From a bacterium (lineage in GTDB: Bacteria; Vulcanimicrobiota; JABDET01): a stretch of 64,000 bases of DNA. This document shows positions 10,586-62,458 of this stretch, piece by piece. The stretch lies in contig JAKAVV010000006.1 in the NCBI GenBank assembly GCA_021817145.1, positions 83,087-147,086 of the forward strand. Direction: 5' to 3'. The position numbers were made by a program, and so were the translations under genes. The notes below the pieces were generated by a model. It did not search any database and had not been told where the DNA came from. It saw nothing but the letters and a program-made list of their open reading frames with translations. The stretch's first letter is position 1, and each line of letters begins with the position of its first letter.

Positions 10586-11750
10586 GATTCAGGTTCCTGA
10601 TTCTGCGGCATTGAAAAGTGTCCAATCATTGTGCGAGATCAACACTCCTTATGATTGGACAGAGCGCTCTGAGAAGTTGTTTGCAGAAGGGATGAAAGAG
10701 ATTGTAAGCTGGCATATTCGAAACAATCGTTTTTTTCGAAGTTTGATGGAATCCCGAAGTTTTACCCCTGATCAGATTAAAAATTCTGATGACTGCGCTC
10801 ATATCCCCTTTGTTTTAGCAAATTATTTCAAAACTCATGAAGAGCTTTCAATACCAAAGGATCAGATTGTTCTGCATGCCACTTCCTCTGGAACCACAGG
10901 GCAGAAATCTCAATTTTTCTTTGATGATTGGACACTTAGGGCAACACAAAGAATGATTGACTGGATTTTTGGGTTTTACGGCTGGACTTCTCCAGATAAA
11001 CCCGCTAATTATCTTCTTTATTCTTATGAGATTGAGCCAGATTTAAAGCTTGGAACCGCTTATACTGACAATTTTCTCTGCAAGTATGCCCCTGTGAATC
11101 ATCTGTTTTATGCTCTCAGAAGAACAGGCTCTGGAACCCATGAATTTGATCTTTTTGGGTGTATTGAAAAACTGATCGAGTATTCAAAAACAAAGCTTCC
11201 AGTCCGTATTTTTGGTTTTCCCGCATTCCTCCATTTTACTCTGGAACGGATGCGAGCTTTGAGAATACCCAAGCTTGAGCTTTCTCCTGATTCTCTCGTG
11301 TTTTTAGGAGGAGGATGGAAAGGGTATGCAGACCAGCAGATTGATAAACGGGAATTGTATCACAGAGTGACAGAGCAGTTAGGGATTCCTGATCACAGAC
11401 TTCGGGATGGGTTTGGTTCTGTGGAGCACAGCATTCCCTATATTGAATGCGAGTCTCACGAATTCCATGTTCCAATCTGGTCTAGAGTTTATATTCGCGA
11501 TGTGAAAACCTTGACCCCTCTTCCAACAGGTTCAGAAGGGTTTCTGCAGTTTGTCACTCCAACAGTTACCTCTGTCCCAGCTTGCAGCGTTTTAATGGGA
11601 GATTTAGCTTCCTGGTATGAAGGAAGTTCTTGTCCTTGCCCTTTATCCACTCCGTATTTTGTGGTGCATGGAAGAGCAGGTATTTCAAAAAACAAAAGCT
11701 GCGCAGTCACTGCTGCAGAGATGCTGGGTAAAGAAAGGAGCGGCCCATGA
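10578..11750 (+). CDS. LuxE-family acyl-protein synthetase
   Basis: ATSSGTTGQKS, FGFPAF, GGGWKG, RDGFGSVEH, VLMGDLA. Confidence 0.88.
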   Translation: MNEIQVPDSAALKSVQSLCEINTPYDWTERSEKLFAEGMKEIVSWHIRNNRFFRSLMESRSFTPDQIKNSDDCAHIPFVLANYFKTHEELSIPKDQIVLHATSSGTTGQKSQFFFDDWTLRATQRMIDWIFGFYGWTSPDKPANYLLYSYEIEPDLKLGTAYTDNFLCKYAPVNHLFYALRRTGSGTHEFDLFGCIEKLIEYSKTKLPVRIFGFPAFLHFTLERMRALRIPKLELSPDSLVFLGGGWKGYADQQIDKRELYHRVTEQLGIPDHRLRDGFGSVEHSIPYIECESHEFHVPIWSRVYIRDVKTLTPLPTGSEGFLQFVTPTVTSVPACSVLMGDLASWYEGSSCPCPLSTPYFVVHGRAGISKNKSCAVTAAEMLGKERSGP

Positions 11751-14293
11751 GCCCTCAGATAAAACCGCATTTATGGCAGGGAAACTGGCTGGATGATTCC
11801 GAGCTCAAAGAGGCAGTTAAGAATTTGTCCCGTATGATTAAGGATGCTCTGCAAGCTCCTCTTGACACTCGATCATTGATTCAATCTTGCGATCGGTTAA
11901 GCCAGAAATTGAAGGATGAAAAAGGGGAAATTTACGAGGTCTTATTTAGAACTTTGATAAAGGGTTCTGACATGAACCCTCTAGAGATTTCCAATGGACT
12001 TTTAGAGATTTCCGAGTTTCTGAGAGGTGAAAATCTTGAGCAGAAGCTCAAGAGAGAGTTTGGGACAATAGATCCATTCAATTTTTCTCGCCCTGACCGA
12101 AGGTTTTCGGTGTTTGAGAAGTGGGCTCCACTTGGTTTTCTTGTCCATACTGCTCCCACAAATTCTTTCAGCGTTGGGGCTTTATCTGTTGTTGAGGGGT
12201 TGCTGGCAGGGAATGTGAATTTTCTCAAAACCGGCGGTTCTGATGGACTGTTTGCGCAGTCTTTTTTGAAATTTTTGATGGATCTTGATGTATCAGGACT
12301 GACAGCTTCTAAAATTTTTGTGTGCAGAATCTCTTCTCGAGATAAAGAGCTCTTAAAAGAGATCTTTTCTCATGCGGATGGAATTGCAGCTTGGGGCGGG
12401 GAAGAGGGTGTTGAAGGGGTTAGAGCTCTTGCTCCTCCACTTGCCCGATTTATTGACTGGGGTCCAAAAATTTCATTTGCCTATTTTGCCGCAGAAAATA
12501 TTGGAAATAGGGAAGAGATCTCCCGGTTTGCCTATGACTGCTGTTTTTTAGATCAGCAGGCTTGTTCCAGCCCTCAGTGTGTTTATGTGGAAACATCAGA
12601 TTCGAGAAAACTGAAAGAGTTTGCTCTCCAGCTTGGAGCAGAACTGGAAAAAATTTCTCCCAATATCCAGAAAAAGGATCCAGATATTCATGAACAGGCA
12701 GAGATTACTTCTGTGACAGAGCTCTGCCGCCTGGAATCCTGCTTTGGTTTAACTGAAGTACTCGAAGATCAAGATAAAAGTTGGAGGATTTTAATTGATC
12801 ATGCCAGCGCTTTAAGAGCTTCTCCGCTTTTTAGAACGATCTGGGTGAAACCGATTCAAAGGGATCGGATTCTGGAGACGTTTAGACCTTTTCGATTTTA
12901 TCTTCAAACAGCTGCTCTTTCCTGCAGTCTTAATTCTTTAGCTGAAATCAGCGAGGCTCTTGTCAGAGCTGGTATTCTTCGTATTACTCCTGTTGGGAAA
13001 ATGCTGGAAAGTTATTCAGGGGAGCCCCATGATGGAGTTTATGCTCTTCAGAGGTATGCTCGCAGAATCAGTTTGCAGCTGGATCAAAAAGCAGAAGGGA
13101 TCTCCACTTTTTCGGAGCTGACTCCAGTTCTGCGCAAGCCCCCTCAGGTTCGGATTATGAGTAAACAGGAGTTTCAATCAGCCCCTCTTGATCCAGAGCG
13201 CTCCCATCTTTATTTTAAAAGCGGAGGCTCTAGCGGGGATCCGAAACTTTCTGTTTTCAGTTATAATGAATATCACCTTCAGATGAAAGCAGGGGCAGAT
13301 GGGCTTTTTGCCGCTGGGCTTGATCCAGCAAAAGATCGATGTATGAATCTCCTTTATGCTGGAGGGCTTTACGGCGGATTTGTCAGTATATTTTCGGTTT
13401 TAGAGGATTTAAATGCGGTTCAATTTCCTATGGGGGCTCATCCTGATACAAGGATGGTGGCTGAAACAATTGCCGCGCATCAGGTGAATGTTCTTATTGG
13501 AATGCCCTCTTATTTGATTCAGCTTTTTATGCAGAATTCCGATTTTTTTAAAGAGCATCCAGTAGTAGAGAAGATTTTTTATGGGGGGGAACATTTTAAT
13601 GAAGTTAAAAAGCGGCATTTTAGAAATGTTTTTGGGGTAAAGATTATTCGTTCTGCTGCTTATGGGAGTGTTGATGCTGGCCCAATTGGGTTTCAGTGCC
13701 AATACTGTGAAGGGAGTGTTCATCACCTTTTCAGCGATCTTCATGTCCTTGAGATTTTAGATTTGAATCAAGATATCTCTGTGCCTGTTGGAGAACCTGG
13801 AAGAGTGGTTTTAACTTCTCTGGCTCGAGTGGGACAGAAATTGGAAAGGTATGAGATTGGAGATACGGCTCGGCTTCTGCCTGGAGAGTGCCCTTGTGGG
13901 CGCAGATCCCCTCGATTTGAGCTTCTGGGAAGACATGGGGATGTTTTCAGAATTGGGAGCATGTTCTTTAATTACGCAAAGTTTGAAAATATTCTTGCTG
14001 AGGAGTTGAATTACACAGGTGAACTGCAAATCTTTCTCCGATCAGGAAAAGGAATAGGGAAAGAAGAGCTGCATCTTCAGCTTTCAAAGGAGAGTGGGCT
14101 GGGGCGGGAAGATGTAAAGTTAGTAAAATCTGCGATTTTGGATGGATATCAAGATCTCAAGGAAGTGGTGGATAGGGAGAAAATTCTTGATTTTACCATT
14201 TCTCTGGTCCCTTCAGTGGAATTTCAGAGAATTCCTGGCAGCGGCAAACTGCGCAGGATTGTAGATGAAAGGCTGACACAGGAAATGAAATGA
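11747..14293 (+). CDS. LuxC-type acyl-CoA reductase fused to a C-terminal PaaK-like (phenylacetate-CoA ligase family) adenylation domain
   Basis: PLGFLVHTAPTN, AWGGEEG, DQQACSSPQ (catalytic Cys); then FKSGGSSGDPK, YGSVDAG, RYEIGD, GRHGD. Confidence 0.88.
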   Translation: MSPQIKPHLWQGNWLDDSELKEAVKNLSRMIKDALQAPLDTRSLIQSCDRLSQKLKDEKGEIYEVLFRTLIKGSDMNPLEISNGLLEISEFLRGENLEQKLKREFGTIDPFNFSRPDRRFSVFEKWAPLGFLVHTAPTNSFSVGALSVVEGLLAGNVNFLKTGGSDGLFAQSFLKFLMDLDVSGLTASKIFVCRISSRDKELLKEIFSHADGIAAWGGEEGVEGVRALAPPLARFIDWGPKISFAYFAAENIGNREEISRFAYDCCFLDQQACSSPQCVYVETSDSRKLKEFALQLGAELEKISPNIQKKDPDIHEQAEITSVTELCRLESCFGLTEVLEDQDKSWRILIDHASALRASPLFRTIWVKPIQRDRILETFRPFRFYLQTAALSCSLNSLAEISEALVRAGILRITPVGKMLESYSGEPHDGVYALQRYARRISLQLDQKAEGISTFSELTPVLRKPPQVRIMSKQEFQSAPLDPERSHLYFKSGGSSGDPKLSVFSYNEYHLQMKAGADGLFAAGLDPAKDRCMNLLYAGGLYGGFVSIFSVLEDLNAVQFPMGAHPDTRMVAETIAAHQVNVLIGMPSYLIQLFMQNSDFFKEHPVVEKIFYGGEHFNEVKKRHFRNVFGVKIIRSAAYGSVDAGPIGFQCQYCEGSVHHLFSDLHVLEILDLNQDISVPVGEPGRVVLTSLARVGQKLERYEIGDTARLLPGECPCGRRSPRFELLGRHGDVFRIGSMFFNYAKFENILAEELNYTGELQIFLRSGKGIGKEELHLQLSKESGLGREDVKLVKSAILDGYQDLKEVVDREKILDFTISLVPSVEFQRIPGSGKLRRIVDERLTQEMK

Positions 14294-14315
14294 TGGAGAC
14301 TGATGGGAATAGTGT

Positions 14316-15692
14316 ATGATGAGTGGACTGCAAAATAATCTGAAAGTTTATCATTGGAAAGAAATTGTGGATTGGGCAAGAGAAAATTCCCCTTTTTACA
14401 GGGAACTTTATCACGGCATTTTCCCAGTTGAAAAACTTTCTGATCTGCCGATTGTCAATCAAGATGATTTCTGGAAAGCGAACACAATTCAGAATAATCG
14501 AGTCTTAACCTCTTCAACCCTGGATGGAATTGTTTTTAAAAGCGGAGGAACAACAGGAAATCCGAAGTTTTCAGTTTTTACTCGTGAAGAGTGGAATGAC
14601 ATGGTTCATTTGTTTGGAGAAGGAATGAGTCAGGCTGGTATTTCTAAAGGGGACAGAGTCGGTAATCTTTTTTATGTTGGGGATCTGTATGGTTCATTTA
14701 TTTTTATTATGAGATCTTTAGAATCAGGACCTATTCCAGTTCTGCAGTTTCCGATTGGGGGAGGAACTTCTCTTGATACGATTTTAAAAACGGTGAATGA
14801 CTTTCAGATTAATGTTCTGGTTGGACCACCTACCACTCTTCTGAGCGCTGCTGCGTATTATCTTGAAAACCGCTTTTTGTATCCTGATATTCGTATTGAT
14901 AAAGCCCTTTATGGGGGAGAATCTATTTATTCGGATCAGAGAGAACAGCTGCTCACAGCTTTTCCTGGAGTAAAGATTCTATCTGTTGGGTATGCTAGTG
15001 TGGATGCAGGGCTATTGGGGTATGCCGCTAAAGATTGTCAGTTGGATGAACACAGAGTTTTTGCTTCTTCAGTCATTCTTGAGATTGTGGATGAAGAAAC
15101 AGGGCAGCCAATTGAAGAGGTTGGACATCCAGGAAAACTGACTGCTACCAGTTTGACAAGAAGATTGATGCCGATTATTCGGTATCCTGTTGGGGATCGG
15201 GCTGAATGGAAAGAGCCCTTTTCAGAAGAGAAAAAGGATCGGAAATTTTTGCTTTTAGGGCGTTCTGATGATGCTGCTCGCATTGGGCCTCTTTCTGTTT
15301 ATTATGAAGATATGAGAGAGATTATTGCCGCGGCTAATACTGGGGTTCCAATCACTGCCTTTCAACTTGTGGTCCGTCATTCGAATAAAAAAGATGGATT
15401 GATTGTGCGAATGGCGGTCTTACCAGAAGAGCTCCAGGACAGAGCTTTGCAAAGCCAGGAAAGTGGAGGCAAAGTTCAGGAAAGTCGAGAAAGCAGCGGC
15501 AGAGCTTCGAAGAAGTTAGACAAAGCTTGGGAAAAGATCCTGAATCTGTTTAATCAAGAGCGTTCCGCTTATCTGCAGGCAGTAGAGCGAGATTTGATTT
15601 ATCCAATGGCTGTGGAGTGGACCACTTCTGATCAAATGAAAATCAACTTGAGGACAGGAAAGCTGAAGCGAGTGATTGATCAGCGTAAATAA
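14316..15692 (+). CDS. PaaK/phenylacetate-CoA ligase family adenylate-forming enzyme
   Basis: FKSGGTTGNPK, GYASVDAG, IIRYPVGDRA, LLGRSDD. Confidence 0.88.
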   Translation: MMSGLQNNLKVYHWKEIVDWARENSPFYRELYHGIFPVEKLSDLPIVNQDDFWKANTIQNNRVLTSSTLDGIVFKSGGTTGNPKFSVFTREEWNDMVHLFGEGMSQAGISKGDRVGNLFYVGDLYGSFIFIMRSLESGPIPVLQFPIGGGTSLDTILKTVNDFQINVLVGPPTTLLSAAAYYLENRFLYPDIRIDKALYGGESIYSDQREQLLTAFPGVKILSVGYASVDAGLLGYAAKDCQLDEHRVFASSVILEIVDEETGQPIEEVGHPGKLTATSLTRRLMPIIRYPVGDRAEWKEPFSEEKKDRKFLLLGRSDDAARIGPLSVYYEDMREIIAAANTGVPITAFQLVVRHSNKKDGLIVRMAVLPEELQDRALQSQESGGKVQESRESSGRASKKLDKAWEKILNLFNQERSAYLQAVERDLIYPMAVEWTTSDQMKINLRTGKLKRVIDQRK

Positions 15693-15814
15693 GCTTCCCC
15701 TGGGATAAAAGATTCTGCTTCTAAAGAAATTGGACTTTCATATTGACAATCTCTTACGAAATGTATTGGTTAGGTGTGGGTAGCACCTCCTGCGTAAGGT
15801 GAGGGGTATCAATT

Positions 15815-16813
15815 TTGAAAAAATGTAAAAGAAGGATAAAATGGACTGGTGAAGAATTTACTCTTATGACTAACTCAGAACCACACATCAATCCAGAGCC
15901 ACGAACTGAACCACCCTCACACATTAACCTGCAGTTAAAGCCAACAGGAACAGAACCTAAACTCCAGGCAGAACTTAAACTCCAAACAGAACCTAAGCCG
16001 CAAGTCAAATCCTTCCTCTTCTGTTCTAAAGGATCTCAAGATAATCCCTGCTCCCTTATGAAAAATGGAACAAAAAAGCGAAAACCTAAAGGATTAACCC
16101 CTTTTGACCCTGATACCATTCGCGTCCAGCGGTACTACTGCAGAACCCACCAACGCTTCTTCACTGAAATCCCTTCTTCTCTTCTGCCCAGAGTCCACTA
16201 TACTGCCCCTGTTGTCACTTTTTCTCTCGATTATTTTATCTTCCCTAAATATTTAAAATACCGCAGAACCAAACATCTCAGCCGTGGGCGTGCGTGGAGA
16301 AAAGAGCCGAAGATTCATTCCACTTCGAAGTTGAGAGAGCAGATAATGAAGAATGAAGAGTTGAAGGAAGATCTGCTGAATCGGCTGGCTAAGCAGAGGG
16401 CAGTGCAGGCAGAAATGCGGGAAGAAGGGCAGAGTAATTTGCAGGAGCAGCTGCAGGGGCAGAGCAGCCTTGAGAGGCAGAGCAGTCAGGAGTTGGCAGG
16501 GCAGAGCAGCCTTGAGGGGCAGAGCAGTCAGAAGCTGGAGAGACAGAGCAGTCTCGAAGGACAGAAGGAGCAGCTTCCTTCACTTCCTCATCAGAGGACA
16601 ATTCGCAGATGGATAAGAGTGCTTTCAGCTGGATGGGATCATCTGCATAAAACCGTGGCTCGCTATTTTGATAAATGGTGGAATCTTTTTTGGTATCGGA
16701 CGAGAAGTGGGGTTTTTGATCTTTTTTCTCTGCAGTCTTTTCTGAATGGATTATCCTGGGAGGAGAAGAGGAGAGGATCCCCTTACTACTACGCTTTTGT
16801 TCGTTCCCCGTAA
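15815..16813 (+). CDS. DUF6431-like Zn-ribbon plus HTH protein with low-complexity repeat insertions
   Basis: C...C..KNG..RK...RVQRYYCRTH..FTEIPSSLLPRVHY and RTIRRW motifs; EPKLQ and GQSSLE repeats. Confidence 0.55.
   Translation: MKKCKRRIKWTGEEFTLMTNSEPHINPEPRTEPPSHINLQLKPTGTEPKLQAELKLQTEPKPQVKSFLFCSKGSQDNPCSLMKNGTKKRKPKGLTPFDPDTIRVQRYYCRTHQRFFTEIPSSLLPRVHYTAPVVTFSLDYFIFPKYLKYRRTKHLSRGRAWRKEPKIHSTSKLREQIMKNEELKEDLLNRLAKQRAVQAEMREEGQSNLQEQLQGQSSLERQSSQELAGQSSLEGQSSQKLERQSSLEGQKEQLPSLPHQRTIRRWIRVLSAGWDHLHKTVARYFDKWWNLFWYRTRSGVFDLFSLQSFLNGLSWEEKRRGSPYYYAFVRSP
15951..16004 (+). repeat. 18-bp tandem repeat, about 3 copies (EPKLQA-like)
   Basis: cagaacctaaactccagg / cagaacttaaactccaaa / cagaacctaagccgcaag. 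Confidence 0.85.
16425..16575 (+). repeat. Alternating 18/24-bp tandem repeats (GQSSLE / RQSSQELA)
   Basis: Recurrent ggcagagcag core followed by ccttgag or tcaggag/tcagaag. Confidence 0.85.
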
Positions 16814-17065
16814 AGGGATGGGTTGACCAGTCCATTTTGTTCGTAATCGTCAATTTTCCCAAACACGCCCCCCTTGCTGTATGGAATGTGCGCTGTAAGA
16901 TTGCTCCTTGTTGTCGTACCTTTTGCTGTGTGTGGCTGCTTTTTGCTGCTTTCAAATTAAGGATGTGAACTGATGGCGATCATTGTCCTGTTTCAAAAAA
17001 ATTGGACTTTTGTTGTTGAACCTATTAGTGGGTTCATTGATTTTTCACAGTTTGGCCAATCCAGT

Positions 17066-18760
17066 TTATTTTATTCTCTGCAGGATAGCCTCTTTTATGG
17101 TTTCTTTTCGAATCTCGATAAATCTTAAAAAATCATTTCTTTTCATGGCATCATAAGCTTTTTCTGAAATCAAGTGGGTTTGGAGGGTGGACAACAGCGT
17201 GGGTTCATTATGACCATGATTTTCTAAAAATAGAGGTAGGTATTCAGAAGGCTTTTTATCCCCTTTTTTATCTTTTCTGTAAGAGTTTGATTCTGATGAG
17301 ATTAAAGTGCGGTTTGCAATAAAGTCGACGTCTTTATCTTTGAATTTTGATTTAGGGAATATATGGTCATCTTCACAAGTCATTAGGTCGGCAGTTTGTC
17401 CTTTGAAGAAATCTTTAGCGCCTGCAAGAACGATAAGGCACATAATCCCACGATAAAGGGCTGATCTCTGTTCAGTAACATCCAGGTCTATTCGGTCAAT
17501 TGTGAGGTCAGTCATCCAGTCAGGAGGAGTATCTTGATCCAGCCATTTTTTCATCTCTTGAAAATCTTGGTAAGTTTTAGTATCTGTTGCCGAATCGTAT
17601 CGCTGAAGGAAAATATTGGACCAATACCAGCGGTCTAGTTTACGGTACATTGTTTCACCACCGCTGCGTTCTTCTACAGCATGAAGTAAGACAGCCAATG
17701 GAACAATAAGAGTGGAGTAAGGAATGAGGTTGCTTTTGATCGCACCATAGCCCCCTTTGGGGTTGGCAATTCTCTGCACAGCTTTTATGATATACTTCTC
17801 GGCTTTCTTCCATTGATCTTCAAAATGATTCTGGTTTAGACTATCCAGAGCATCCAGTATTTTCCCCTTTTTTGGTTCTTTGCCTTCCCAGAGAGTGATC
17901 ATTTTAAGTAGAAACTCCGGTTTGATCATTTTGCTCAGTTTCTCATCCAGCTCCTTATTTGCGCTGTTTTGAAAATTCTCCCATAGATTTCGAAGGAGAA
18001 TCTTTTTGGGGTACACTCGGGCTTGAACCAGATCGAAAAGAGACAATGAAATCCCTGTTCTGTTGATTCTTTCGAATATATTGACAATATCCTCTTGCCC
18101 TCTTTCAGATGCTAGAGAAACAACAGGAATCATGAATTTCTCGATACGCTGGTAAAGATTTTCGATATTTTTTTGGTCAGAATTATTCCAGATTTTCTGT
18201 TCGTTATACAACCAGCGATAAAAATCTCCAGAATCGCGTAAACGCGAAAAAGGGAGAGCTTCATAATTTTGGACAAGATCTTCATATTCCCTCATTCTTC
18301 GTTTATCACGAGTTGAGATTCCAATAACAGCATCATCAAGCTCCCCTTTGATCGCTTCTTTAAGGTTCAGAAAAAATTTGTGAGGATGGTTTGACCACTG
18401 CAGTGGTATATCCGGTTCATAAAGAACATAAAATAAAGAGCTGATTCTTTGCTGTCCATCCAGGAGAAGACGGACGGTTGTATGAGATTGAGGAACAGCA
18501 AATGGAATTTTATCATGCCCTTCCATCAGCCTGAATGGAAACATAGGCTGTTGAGTTTGTGTATCCAGCACCAAGAAAGTGCCAATAAAGTAACCCTGGA
18601 GGATTGATGAAAGCAGCTCTTCAATATCCTGCCTTTGCCAGACAAAAGAACGTTGAAATTCGGGAACAACCAACTTTCCTATAAAAGCTTCGCGAATCAG
18701 ATCAAAAAGACGCTCAGGGTTCGCTTTTGGAGCTTCAGAGGTTTGTTTAAGGGTTTGCAT
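17066..18760 (-). CDS. GmrSD-family (DUF262 + DUF1524/HNH) restriction endonuclease
   Basis: VPEFQRSFVW, LDGQQR, IFERINRTG, EDDHIFPKS, ANRTLIS..SN. Confidence 0.88.
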   Translation of the reverse strand: MQTLKQTSEAPKANPERLFDLIREAFIGKLVVPEFQRSFVWQRQDIEELLSSILQGYFIGTFLVLDTQTQQPMFPFRLMEGHDKIPFAVPQSHTTVRLLLDGQQRISSLFYVLYEPDIPLQWSNHPHKFFLNLKEAIKGELDDAVIGISTRDKRRMREYEDLVQNYEALPFSRLRDSGDFYRWLYNEQKIWNNSDQKNIENLYQRIEKFMIPVVSLASERGQEDIVNIFERINRTGISLSLFDLVQARVYPKKILLRNLWENFQNSANKELDEKLSKMIKPEFLLKMITLWEGKEPKKGKILDALDSLNQNHFEDQWKKAEKYIIKAVQRIANPKGGYGAIKSNLIPYSTLIVPLAVLLHAVEERSGGETMYRKLDRWYWSNIFLQRYDSATDTKTYQDFQEMKKWLDQDTPPDWMTDLTIDRIDLDVTEQRSALYRGIMCLIVLAGAKDFFKGQTADLMTCEDDHIFPKSKFKDKDVDFIANRTLISSESNSYRKDKKGDKKPSEYLPLFLENHGHNEPTLLSTLQTHLISEKAYDAMKRNDFLRFIEIRKETIKEAILQRIK

Positions 18761-18928: not shown

Positions 18929-20719
18929 TTGAAATCAGAAATTACCAGTATTTTGGCAACAGACTGCGGCTCAACCACAACAAAAGCGATTTTAATCGAA
19001 AAAAAAGAGGGGGAGTACAGACTCATTGTTCGTGGTGAAGCTCCTACAACAGTTGAAGCTCCTGTTGAAGATGTTACCCATGGTGTTCTGAATGCTGTTC
19101 GAGAAGTGGAAGAACTGGCAGGAAGACCTTTGTTGGAAAATGGACAGATCATAAAACCACAATTATCTGAAAAAGGAGTTGATCTTTATTTATCTACCTC
19201 AAGCGCTGGAGGTGGACTGCAGATGCTGGTTGCTGGGGTGGTTCTGGAAATTTCGGCTGAATCTGCTGCAAGAGCTGCCTTAGGGGCAGGGGCAATTGTC
19301 ATGGATGTGATTGCTGCAAATGATGGCAGAGTTCCTTATCAGAAGATTGAGAGGATTCGTTCCTTAAGACCTGACATGATTCTTTTGTCTGGAGGAATGG
19401 ATGGCGGGACTGTTTCCCATGTTGTTGAAGCAGCTCAATTGATTTCTGCAGCGGATCCAAAACCCAGACTTGGGGCAGGGTATGAGCTGCCTGTGATTTA
19501 TGCGGGGAATAAAGATGCGCGAGAAAATGTTAAACAGATTCTTGAAAACAAAACCGCTCTGCAGATTACTGAAAATTTGAGACCAACAGATAAAACCGAG
19601 AATTTAACCCCTGCCCGTCAGAGCATTCAATCTCTTTTTTTAGAGCATGTGATGGCTCATGCCCCTGGATATAGAACTTTAATGGAATGGACTGATGCTC
19701 CGATTATGCCCACTCCTGCTGCTGTAGGGATCATGATGCAGAAGATCGCTGAACAACATAAAATGAATGTTCTTGGGGCTGATATTGGAGGAGCAACAAC
19801 CGATGTCTTCTCTGTTTTTCACGGGATTTATCATCGGACCGTCAGCGCTAATCTGGGGATGAGTTATTCGATTTCCAATGTTTTTAAAGAGGCGGGATTT
19901 GAGAAGATTTTACAGTGGGTTCCTTTTGACTTAAATGAAAAAGAGTTGAGAAATAAGATTAAAAACAAGATGATTCGCCCTACCACAATCCCCCAATTAT
20001 TGGAAGAATTAATGATAGAGCAGGCTGTCTGCAGAGAAGCATTAAGGCTTTCTTTTGAGCAGCACAAACTGCTGGCTGTTGGATTGAAAGGGGTTCAGCA
20101 GGAGAGAAATATTTCCGATGCTTTTGCTCAAACTGAATCAGGAGAAACTTTAATAAAAATGATGAATTTAGATATGCTGATCGGGAGTGGAGGGGTTTTA
20201 AGTCATGCTCCTCGCCGCTCTCAAGCTGCTTTAATGATGCTCGATGCTTACCTGCCTGAAGGGATTACCTATTTGACAGTTGACAGCATTTTTATGATGC
20301 CGCAGCTAGGGGTTTTAAGTCAGGTTCACCCTGAAGCAGCCACTCAAGTTTTTGAAAAGGATTGTTTGATCTGGCTTGGTACCTGTATCGCCCCTGTTGG
20401 AGAAATGAAAGACAAGAAGCTTCTTGCAAAGATTCGTCTTCAATTTCCTGATGGAAAAAGTGAGGAGATGGTTTTGAATTTTGGAGAATTGAAAGCGATT
20501 CCATTAGGGGGAAAGGAAACCGCAAAAGTTTTTCTGCAGCCTGCTGCTGGAATTGACTGTGGAAAAGGGAAAGGGGCTTCTTTTGAGACAGAAGTAAAAG
20601 GAGGGGCTGTTGGTCTTATTTTAGATGGGAGAGGTCGTCCTTTTAATCTGCCAAAAAGCAGATCTGACAGAATGAATAAATTGAAAGAATGGAATTCCGC
20701 ATTGAATGTTTATCCATGA
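18929..20719 (+). CDS. GlmL/MutL-like (glutamate mutase L family) ASKHA ATPase
   Basis: ATDCGSTTTK, TSSAGGGL, DIGGATTDVF, RTVSANLGMSYS. Confidence 0.85.
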   Translation: MKSEITSILATDCGSTTTKAILIEKKEGEYRLIVRGEAPTTVEAPVEDVTHGVLNAVREVEELAGRPLLENGQIIKPQLSEKGVDLYLSTSSAGGGLQMLVAGVVLEISAESAARAALGAGAIVMDVIAANDGRVPYQKIERIRSLRPDMILLSGGMDGGTVSHVVEAAQLISAADPKPRLGAGYELPVIYAGNKDARENVKQILENKTALQITENLRPTDKTENLTPARQSIQSLFLEHVMAHAPGYRTLMEWTDAPIMPTPAAVGIMMQKIAEQHKMNVLGADIGGATTDVFSVFHGIYHRTVSANLGMSYSISNVFKEAGFEKILQWVPFDLNEKELRNKIKNKMIRPTTIPQLLEELMIEQAVCREALRLSFEQHKLLAVGLKGVQQERNISDAFAQTESGETLIKMMNLDMLIGSGGVLSHAPRRSQAALMMLDAYLPEGITYLTVDSIFMMPQLGVLSQVHPEAATQVFEKDCLIWLGTCIAPVGEMKDKKLLAKIRLQFPDGKSEEMVLNFGELKAIPLGGKETAKVFLQPAAGIDCGKGKGASFETEVKGGAVGLILDGRGRPFNLPKSRSDRMNKLKEWNSALNVYP

Positions 20720-49624: not shown

Positions 49625-49775
49625 TTTTGCGGCGCATTTAATCCACTGCCCCCTATTTTTTTAATATTTAAAAAATCCAGTTGCCCTTGTTTATCTCTCT
49701 GTTCTGCTTCTAAATAAATTAAACTTTTTAGGGTTGCGAAAATTGTATTGATAAAAAGTCACTAACCCCAATCTC

Positions 49776-61928: not shown

Positions 61929-62458
61929 GAAGGTATGGGCAAGCCATCGAAGAAAAAGTTAATATGACTCAGAAAAGGAGCTTTTTTTGGGTTTTATTAT
62001 TTTTAACTTTGATCTTGCCCTTTTATGCTTTTGCTTTTGTGAAAAGGATAAAATATGAAGGGGAAAAATGGACTCTTTACATTAACTCTTATCACAATTT
62101 TTTCCTTTTGGGTCCGTGGGGGAAAAAGGCTGTTTTAATTGATCACCCTGTAAATCAGGCTTGGGGATCTGTTGGTTCTTTTGGGCTTGTTCTAATTTAT
62201 CGAAAAGGGGTTCAGTTCCGCTGGAAAATCGTATCAGGTTATAATGGGAAAGAAAAGGATGGCGGTCTTTTATTTTATGAGGGTCCTGACACTGGTTTTG
62301 TGAGGAGGATACAGATTTATCCTAGACTCCAAGGAGCTCTTGTAAAAGTTGTTTTTAACAATATTAAAGCCTTTTCAGGTGAAAAATATATTGTTTATTA
62401 TCTAGACACTCACAGTCACAAAACCATTATGAGAGAAGGGTTTATGAAGAGATCTTGA
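61925..62458 (+). CDS. Hypothetical exported protein
   Basis: Signal-like hydrophobic segment; continues the operon. Confidence 0.55.
   Translation: MRRYGQAIEEKVNMTQKRSFFWVLLFLTLILPFYAFAFVKRIKYEGEKWTLYINSYHNFFLLGPWGKKAVLIDHPVNQAWGSVGSFGLVLIYRKGVQFRWKIVSGYNGKEKDGGLLFYEGPDTGFVRRIQIYPRLQGALVKVVFNNIKAFSGEKYIVYYLDTHSHKTIMREGFMKRS

Follow-up and report, generated by a model that had tools for sequence, protein, structure and literature searches.

What is the 1.3-kb segment that separates a lux-like operon from the gene of a GmrSD-type nuclease in a bacterium of the Vulcanimicrobiota (lineage JABDET01)? The segment lies in a stretch of 64,000 nucleotides (the window; contig JAKAVV010000006.1 of assembly GCA_021817145.1, positions 83,087 to 147,086) and holds four matches to AAAWTGGACT around a single open reading frame (ORF), which appears to encode a divergent protein of the DUF6431 family. 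A preceding reading, made from the sequence alone, had taken it for a mobile cassette that encodes no transposase, inserted between the lux-like operon and the GmrSD gene, and had treated the four sites as one set of end sites. The first claim is borne out by other copies and by an empty allele. The second has to be given up, because the outer-left site belongs to a separate intergenic repeat of 14 copies, which is present in degenerate form in the empty allele. The explanation that we favour, at somewhat better than even confidence, is that the segment is a non-autonomous module derived from a DUF6431-type insertion sequence (IS) of the IS21 family, moved in trans and reshuffled by recombination.

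The matches to AAAWTGGACT were confirmed at 15727(+), 15838(+), 16829-16838(-) and 16999(+), and a fifth was found at 62065(+). These five compare with 1.16 expected, and five or more occurred in none of 100 shuffles of the window. Across the whole genome (an assembly of 2.66 Mb in 42 contigs, 41% G+C), there are 47 matches, or 1.13 per 64 kb, which is the chance rate. The extended forms are strongly enriched genome-wide, with 19 occurrences of AAAATGGACTGGT and 11 of AAATTGGACTTT. All 19 of the AAAATGGACTGGT 13-mers fall within copies of one repeat, and several form inverted pairs spaced 1.0-1.3 kb apart. The two repeats that had been described around the gene were also recovered. The outer direct repeat of 12 bp extends to 16 nt at 94% identity (15723-15738 / 16995-17010), and the perfect inner inverted repeat of 13 bp (Table 1) sits within 41-nt arms of 71% complementarity. 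The four sites are split between two distinct things, the inner pair and the outer-left site.

A BLASTN comparison with the genome, a check that had been proposed for other copies, identified window positions 15762-16899 as a dispersed repeat with four full copies and more than 10 partial ones, many of which break contigs. Besides the window, full copies lie on contigs C19 (91% identity), C32 (90%) and C5 (87%), and partial copies lie at or near the ends of C21, C6, C27, C23, C28, C37, C14, C13, C7 and C39. The genome holds about 9 left ends and 13 right ends of this module, together with one internally deleted derivative of about 325 bp (C28:53687-54011). The core measures 1.14 kb (1138 bp) in the window and 1.4-1.5 kb in most copies, and its internal orientation relative to the ends is identical in all of them. 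On C28 (53687-54471), this deleted copy, which consists of the left end, codons 114-171 and the right end, is fused in frame to an IS630-type DDE_3 catalytic domain, giving a chimeric ORF of 234 amino acids; the same chimera is the database protein P0025.

Four DNA metagenomes (mine drainage, tailings and sediment; assembled contigs only) and two close assemblies supplied the empty site that had been suggested as a check. A joint of 15727 to 17045, with 25 other letters between, was found in metagenome runs X1 (21.9x) and X8 (12.2x) and in assemblies L025 (GCA_027421825.1) and L030, whose flanks are 99.8% identical to those of the window. L025 and L030 encode an identical GmrSD protein, and the gap between its gene and the luxE-like gene is 81 bp there. 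The empty allele reads ...TTCTGCTTCTAAAGA-GAATTTGAAGTTTTCATTGGGGTTG-TCACAG... and includes a single, degenerate member of the 14-copy repeat. In the filled allele, the 25 nt give way to 1317 nt, comprising 20 unique nt, the 1138-bp core and a 145-nt tail that carries the second AAATTGGACTTT of this allele. Since two near-identical strains have 25 nt where the window has 1317, the cassette, which lies between the luxE-like gene and the GmrSD gene, is an insertion polymorphism. Unitigs at flank-like depth cross both window junctions (15698-15811 and 16870-17085), so that the window arrangement is not an assembly chimera. Summed metagenome contig depth was 500-2800 over 15763-16939, compared with 65-90 in the flanks (8-26 times). 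The inversion or circle joint that had been envisaged was not seen in these metagenomes. For the C32 copy no empty site was found, only variants with a spacer deletion. Genome G001 of the sister species was uninformative as an empty site; its luxE-like gene shows 72% amino-acid identity, and it has no GmrSD gene and no synteny.

The left terminus of the module is the same in unrelated surroundings. Left ends from the window, an IstB remnant, C23 and C28a all open with TGTAYTGGTTAGG, and loose ends in the metagenomes add about six contexts that break at 15762/15763. The right ends fall into subfamilies. The window and C19-type copies agree up to ...GCGCTGTAAG (16899); the C32, C27 and C23 copies part ways after ...CTGCTGTCTGG, the equivalent of 16884; and C39, C14 and C23b run on into a GCTG-rich tail, of which the window has a part, to about 16950. 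The left end begins TGTAYTGG, and one right-end subfamily has ...GGTACA with homology extending beyond it; clean terminal inverted repeats for the module were not definable from the copy ends compared. Micro-repeats at the junctions (TGTA, AATGT and CGCTGTA) were tried as a guide to exact termini or target duplications, and several readings suit a part of the copies, but none suits every one. A two-box layout (AAAATTGAC and AAAATGGAC, about 22 nt apart) occurs at the right end only. The right 13-mer is invariant in all 11 right ends that retain the site, with varying bases next to it, and is missing from the internally deleted copies C28a and C23b. The borders drawn in the sequence-only reading hold in part: the polymorphic unit roughly matches the outer sites, whereas the multicopy core is 15762-16899 and the 13-mer inverted repeat is subterminal or internal.

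Most copies carry an AT-rich spacer of 230-330 bp between the stop codon and the right 13-mer, which the window and C39 copies lack. Three unrelated versions of the spacer occupy this one position (for example C19:48371-48703, C32 and C27), and spacer-less forms co-occur in the metagenomes. The spacer has no conserved ORF, and two module copies searched against Rfam, spacer included, gave no significant match. At the other end of the gene, most copies have TCG where the window has TTG, so that the ATG at 15866 may be the true start; if it is, the left 13-mer may occupy an operator-like position.

The encoded protein has a CCCH zinc ribbon, an LLPRVHY motif, a helix-turn-helix (HTH) with RTIRRWI and a C-terminal PYYY. 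An exhaustive phmmer search retrieved seven distant relatives of 118-215 amino acids (matches P0030-P0037, E 1e-15 to 9e-4), which are 32-42% identical over the stretch from ribbon to HTH; P0037 (38.6 bits), P0033 (27.9) and P0032 (27.8) lie above the DUF6431 gathering score. The relatives align with a common layout of C-x7-9-C ... C-x2-H, LLPRxHY, KTxxRWI and a C-terminal helix ending in PYHY, in which C71, H74, LLP, HY and T..RW are invariant columns, and the window protein differs from them by two additional low-complexity inserts. Transitive homology of this kind indicates that the window ORF is a divergent member of the DUF6431 family. The zinc ribbon and HTH, as read from the sequence, stand up through these relatives, three of which pass the cut-off that the window protein itself misses. 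A domain search found no recombinase domain in the ORF, and neither Pfam nor NCBIfam, nor a search of PDB sequences, nor Foldseek revealed a catalytic domain. NCBIfam and the PDB sequence search gave no matches for the protein. An AlphaFold2 model of the homologue P0037 was of moderate quality (pLDDT 70), and Foldseek found no match to it in PDB at E <= 0.001, with a best TM-score of 0.2.

The gene was present in none of 40 related genomes, including G001 of the same genus. A search of 5.8 billion proteins returned only relatives of more than 75% identity, all from the same lineage, and a profile search of that set gave no further named relatives. Scans of public genome contigs and metagenome contigs (with a single protein, and for genome contigs also with an alignment) found no related loci. 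Between copies, which are 6-15% apart in DNA, amino-acid changes lie nearly all in the low-complexity parts. The ratio of nonsynonymous to synonymous polymorphism (pN/pS) is 0.06 in the ribbon core (12 codons with synonymous changes only, 3 with an amino-acid change) and 0.13 in the HTH/C-terminal core (10 and 6 codons, respectively). These low values argue that the protein is functional and that its core, about 190 amino acids of zinc ribbon and HTH, is under purifying selection in many copies. The 42-nt repeat, with units of QSSLE(G/R)QSSQ(E/K)L, differs in number among the copies, from about 1 unit to more than 7 (for example C6:6650-7584), and the 18-nt repeat varies too. In one metatranscriptome, contigs cover 16004-16793 and leave the flanking genes uncovered, a weak signal, as the gene is multicopy and DNA carry-over is possible.

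As the sequence-only reading had stated of DUF6431-type proteins in general, relatives lie beside transposase and ATPase genes: for three of the five distant homologues with context, the gene is part of an IS21-type unit or adjoins one, and runs divergently from istA-istB. The gene of P0033 belongs to a 3175-bp unit that recurs in three contexts (L020, L021 and L022). In this unit, IstB (PF01695) and IstA (rve plus Mu-transpos_C_2) share a strand, and the DUF6431 gene lies on the opposite one and runs divergently from istA. The genes of P0035 and P0037 have the same divergent arrangement with an IstA-type gene. P0032 and P0030 are each encoded by a solo gene, and solo DUF6431 genes occur on repeat-like contigs of about 1.2 kb in other organisms (L015 and L023). 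Where the sequence-only reading saw no IS family that it could name, the element can be placed: it would derive from IS21-family elements that carry a DUF6431 gene. A literature search found no description of DUF6431 / IstA / IstB three-gene units, a group without a name, and a full-text search for DUF6431 returned no paper that, by title and abstract, deals with the family.

The module shares with the DUF6431-carrying IS21 unit a homologous accessory protein with the same layout of CCCH ribbon, LLPRxHY, HTH and PYHY, a gene whose 3' end is near the element end (59 bp past the stop codon in the 3175-bp unit, 86 bp in the spacer-less window copy), and a box of the AAATGGAC type in the gene-proximal end. 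It differs in its length (1.1-1.5 kb, compared with 3.2 kb), in having neither istA nor istB, and in its left end, a terminus that is new and lies 53 bp ahead of the ORF. Its protein differs by the two low-complexity inserts and by an identity of 32-42% over the ribbon-HTH core. Assessed as an IS21 element, the module has no second ORF, no rve match and no IstB, and fragments of IstA lie outside it only. From the outside inward, the end next to the DUF6431 gene in the canonical unit reads GTGTTGAAGATTTCATTTTCAAATGGACCCAC... This end and the 14-copy repeat (TGTTCTGCTTCTAAAGAAATTGGAC...) both start with TGTT and have an AAAT(T)GGAC box about 17-20 nt in. Such boxes at the canonical end, in the 14-copy repeat and at the module right end might represent a common recognition motif, which we take as a lead, not a result. 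No matching 13-mer pair was found in the canonical IS (L022).

Resident IS21-like elements of this genome, with left and right inverted repeats IRL TGTAGACGATCATCAAATTTGATCCCC... and IRR ...GGGGTCAATTCTAGATGATCGCCTACA, have no DUF6431 gene; two subfamilies are present, whose IstA N-termini read MITMYRWHK and MITIYTWQ. Most module copies are cargo in defective resident IS21. The commonest context is a 2.4-kb composite of the order IRR-IstB(C-terminus) / module / IS630-type DDE_3 fragment / IstA fragments-IRL, with examples on C19 and C5, at several contig ends and in strain L019. In these composites (C19:47025-49403; C5:28214-30642; L019:4506-6888), the TGTAG...CTACA ends are intact and the interior is replaced. 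The C19 composite is bounded by a perfect 6-bp target duplication, TGCAAA, and so at least this composite was moved by IS21-type transposition, presumably with IstA/IstB acting in trans. Comparison of strains further indicates that module copies recombine with each other and thereby rearrange the chromosome. Strain L018 has the window left junction (98.6% identity over 5.9 kb) and, in its copy, a C5-like 3' half and spacer, followed by a right flank that is C28:57513 onward at 99.95%; L017 connects the left flank of C32 to the right flank of C21.

The derivation that we favour can be set out as follows. The accessory-gene arm would have become detached from a three-gene IS21 element and multiplied to about 12 copies in one acid-mine-drainage species, the sister species having none. 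The DUF6431 protein would bind the two inverted AAAATGGACTGGT 13-mers, its putative sites. Binding to the left 13-mer, over its own promoter or 5' end, would provide autoregulation, and binding to the right one, past the stop codon and adjoining an IS21-like two-box end, would provide end recognition. Breakage and joining of the solo module would be carried out by a DDE transposase and ATPase acting in trans. The module has the properties of a non-autonomous transposable element, being multicopy, without a transposase and polymorphic in insertion. Like miniature inverted-repeat transposable elements (MITEs), mini-IS and trans-mobilised IS21 deletion derivatives, it lacks a transposase, is multicopy and strain-polymorphic, and has a shorter deletion derivative (on C28). 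MITEs are short (under about 800 bp) and non-coding, in contrast to the module, which measures 1.1-1.5 kb, retains an intact, selected protein-coding gene and has no clear terminal inverted repeats of its own. No autonomous partner with ends matching those of the module was found in the genome. IS1 InsA and the TniQ/TnsD-type proteins are likewise small zinc-ribbon plus HTH proteins of mobile elements. They bind the ends of the element or its targets and control or guide transposition, and by analogy the DUF6431 protein may have a similar role; the resemblance is functional only, with no sequence or fold relationship detected.

Several observations weigh against this derivation. The module does not end in clean inverted repeats, and its subfamilies have different right ends. 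The window event replaces 25 nt rather than simply adding DNA with a target duplication, and the insertion has 20 + 145 nt that are absent from other copies. A 5-bp TTCAT repeat or a 16-bp repeat of the window copy can be read as a duplication, neither of them compelling, and among the composites a target duplication bounds one of three, C5 and L019 being without. No intact IstA or IstB is assembled in the genome, where all are fragments. The window ORF itself scores 18.7 bits (E 0.0016) against Pfam PF20020 (DUF6431), below the gathering score of 26.6, and other genome copies score about 20 bits. Finally, all genomes are metagenome assemblies, and some junctions, other than the unitig-backed ones of the window, could be chimeric.

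Some of these points would be accommodated if the module spread by recombination only, be it homologous, short-homology or site-specific, in the manner of gene cassettes. It would then be gained and lost at flanking repeats, either the 14-copy TTCTGCTTCTAAAGAAATTGGAC... family or other copies, or else travel as a passenger of IS21 composites. The two alleles do differ by replacement, with borders in or next to AAATTGGACTTT repeats, and the module has no sharp right boundary. Unrelated accessory genes follow the 14-copy repeat, direct pairs of which bracket 1.2- and 4-kb cargo on C20 and C21, and there are chimeric copies and flanks swapped between strains. However, at least 4-6 unrelated contexts, none with the 14-copy repeat, have one and the same sharp left terminus, the empty allele is not a simple recombinant of the two direct repeats of the filled allele, and purifying selection in many copies is hard to square with a passive passenger. 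We regard this explanation as unlikely, though by no means negligible. Selection on the protein also speaks for an account in which the copies are paralogues of a domesticated DNA-binding protein of the host, which might for instance silence mobile DNA, and the repeats are its operators. The promoter-like site that overlaps the left 13-mer, the transcript signal and the neighbouring defence genes (GmrSD) would suit such a regulator. On the other hand, strains of 99.8% identity differ in whether they have the gene, none occurs in the sister species, and the copies, of which more than 10 are near-identical, keep conserved non-coding ends, break contigs and include a deletion derivative. Strain variation, the multicopy pattern and absence from the sister species make up the population signature of a selfish repeat and not of a host regulon, and a domesticated regulator is decidedly unlikely.

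An autonomous element, whose DUF6431 protein alone or with host factors rearranges DNA at AAAATGGACTGGT sites or at TGTAYTGG-type ends, would account for the sole gene of a multiplied module with a defined left end, for strong purifying selection between copies as seen for cis-acting transposases, for the solo genes on repeat-like contigs elsewhere and for the invariant His/Tyr motifs LLPRxHY and PYHY. Yet the searches listed above found no catalytic domain, the small core is a zinc ribbon and an HTH, and three of five relatives with context pair the gene with a classical DDE transposase and ATPase, which leaves this proposal very unlikely. The perfect 13-bp inverted repeat that brackets the ORF could also suggest crossover sites between which the ORF flips. 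With no strand-changing joint in the assembled contigs of the four metagenomes, the same internal orientation in all copies, and neither an encoded invertase nor a recombinase domain in the ORF, an invertible segment is hardly credible. A further proposal, which we consider rather unlikely, is that the gene of a DNA-binding subunit escaped together with its sites from a three-gene transposon of IS21 type and now propagates itself, as an IS parasite or a minimal autonomous element. It would either recruit the IstA/IstB of an unrelated resident IS21 onto the module ends or rely on a DUF6431 protein, with its invariant His/Tyr motifs, that is catalytic in its own right. If this were true, the AAAATGGAC boxes, the AAATTGGAC box of the 14-copy repeat and the end of the distant DUF6431-IS would form a conserved recognition code, which would also steer insertion beside such boxes, as at the window locus.

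Table 1. Features of the polymorphic segment and its surroundings, in window coordinates.
Feature	Position	Strand	Remarks
14-copy repeat member, consensus TGTTCTGCTTCTAAAGAAATTGGACTTTTATGGGGGATAAAA...	15711-15741	+	holds outer-left AAATTGGACT; outside the multicopy element; degenerate in the empty allele
Polymorphic segment, 1317 nt	15728-17044	.	replaced by 25 nt GAATTTGAAGTTTTCATTGGGGTTG in close strains; joint in X1, X8, L025, L030
20 nt private to the window insertion	15742-15761	+	absent from other copies and from the empty allele
Multicopy core of the element	15762-16899	+	left terminus TGTAYTGGTTAGG in at least 4 assembled and about 6 metagenomic contexts; depth step at 15762/63 and about 16899-16939
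DUF6431-family gene (divergent, by transitive homology)	15815-16813	+	332 amino acids from TTG; 315 if ATG 15866
Promoter-like match, TTGAAA-16-TAAAAT, 10/12	15815-15842	+	sigma-70 consensus match only; -10 hexamer overlaps the left 13-mer
Left 13-mer AAAATGGACTGGT, putative operator/protein-binding site	15838-15850	+	
Three 18-nt tandem repeats, Pro/Glu/Lys-rich N-terminal insert	15951-16004	+	varies between copies
Three 42-nt tandem repeats, (QSSLEGQSSQ..) low-complexity insert between zinc ribbon and HTH	16446-16571	+	far more in the C6 copy
Site of the AT-rich spacer in most other copies	16814-16815	.	
Right 13-mer AAAATGGACTGGT	16826-16838	-	non-coding
Second box GGGAAAATTGACG, about 22 nt from the 13-mer	16849-16861	-	two-box layout resembles resident IS21 IstA-binding repeats (resemblance only)
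Insertion-specific tail	16900-17044	+	GCTG-rich part in common with C39, C14 copies to about 16950; outer-right AAAAAAATTGGACTTT at 16995-17010
Terminator-like hairpin in the insertion tail	17017-17036		

The 14-copy repeat has a sharp 5' border, and the unrelated accessory genes downstream of it include restriction-modification, toxin-antitoxin (HigBA-like), HipA, glycosyltransferase and DUF488 genes. Besides the member next to the insertion (Table 1), it occurs at about 49702-49730 of the window (C1:132788) and at 12 further loci (C1:56183, C11, C14, C20 twice, C21 twice, C27, C30, C37 twice and C40). One member adjoins the 3' end of a tRNA, and a conserved leader of about 60 nt that includes a ribosome-binding site often comes after the repeat (TGTTCTGCTTCTAAAGAAATTGGACTTTTATGGGGGATAAAAATTGTATGG...). 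It was considered as the inverted repeat of an IS and rejected as tested, in view of the unrelated genes that follow it and because no inverted partner was found. Its TGT-plus-box layout does resemble IS21-type ends. The repeat might mark the end of a family of cargo-carrying IS21/Mu-like transposons, or else serve as a site of cassette recombination or as a mobile promoter. In the insertion-specific tail, window 16968-17012 (TGATGGCGATCATTGTCC...AAATTGGACTTTT) resembles the outer 13 nt of the resident IS21 end (TGTAGGCGATCAT) with a box after them, and may be a decayed solo end of IS21 type.

The neighbours of the DUF6431 ORF encode a LuxC-AMP-binding fusion, a luxE-like acyl-protein synthetase and the GmrSD-type nuclease. 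The lux-like genes (window 11747-15692) specify the fusion of LuxC with an AMP-binding (acyl-protein synthetase-like) domain, 848 amino acids, and then a second luxE-like protein of 458 amino acids; an upstream LuxE is present in L018. They form a fatty-acyl reduction operon in a non-luminous acid-mine-drainage bacterium. The region downstream of this operon is a variable island, as seen from L018 and L028 against the window to the right of 16899 and near 20700. In one strain, HTH_3/BrnT toxin-antitoxin genes take the place of GmrSD, and in another a HicA-type toxin pair is inserted beside the MutL-like gene.

Non-autonomous IS derivatives are well known, and the trans-mobilised DUF6431 module that we favour would not form a new category. 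What is new is a stand-alone DUF6431 module that kept its selected gene and was multiplied without a transposase. In a widespread group of IS21/Mu-like elements, DUF6431 proteins are an accessory component that has gone unstudied. For this component, the genome provides a natural experiment, in which the DUF6431 gene alone, with its flanking sites, was amplified and kept under selection, and this points to a cis-acting role in transposition or in its control. The module also supplies a 13-bp candidate binding site. In practical terms for this lineage, it breaks assemblies, mediates rearrangements between strains and marks the edge of a variable region of defence genes.

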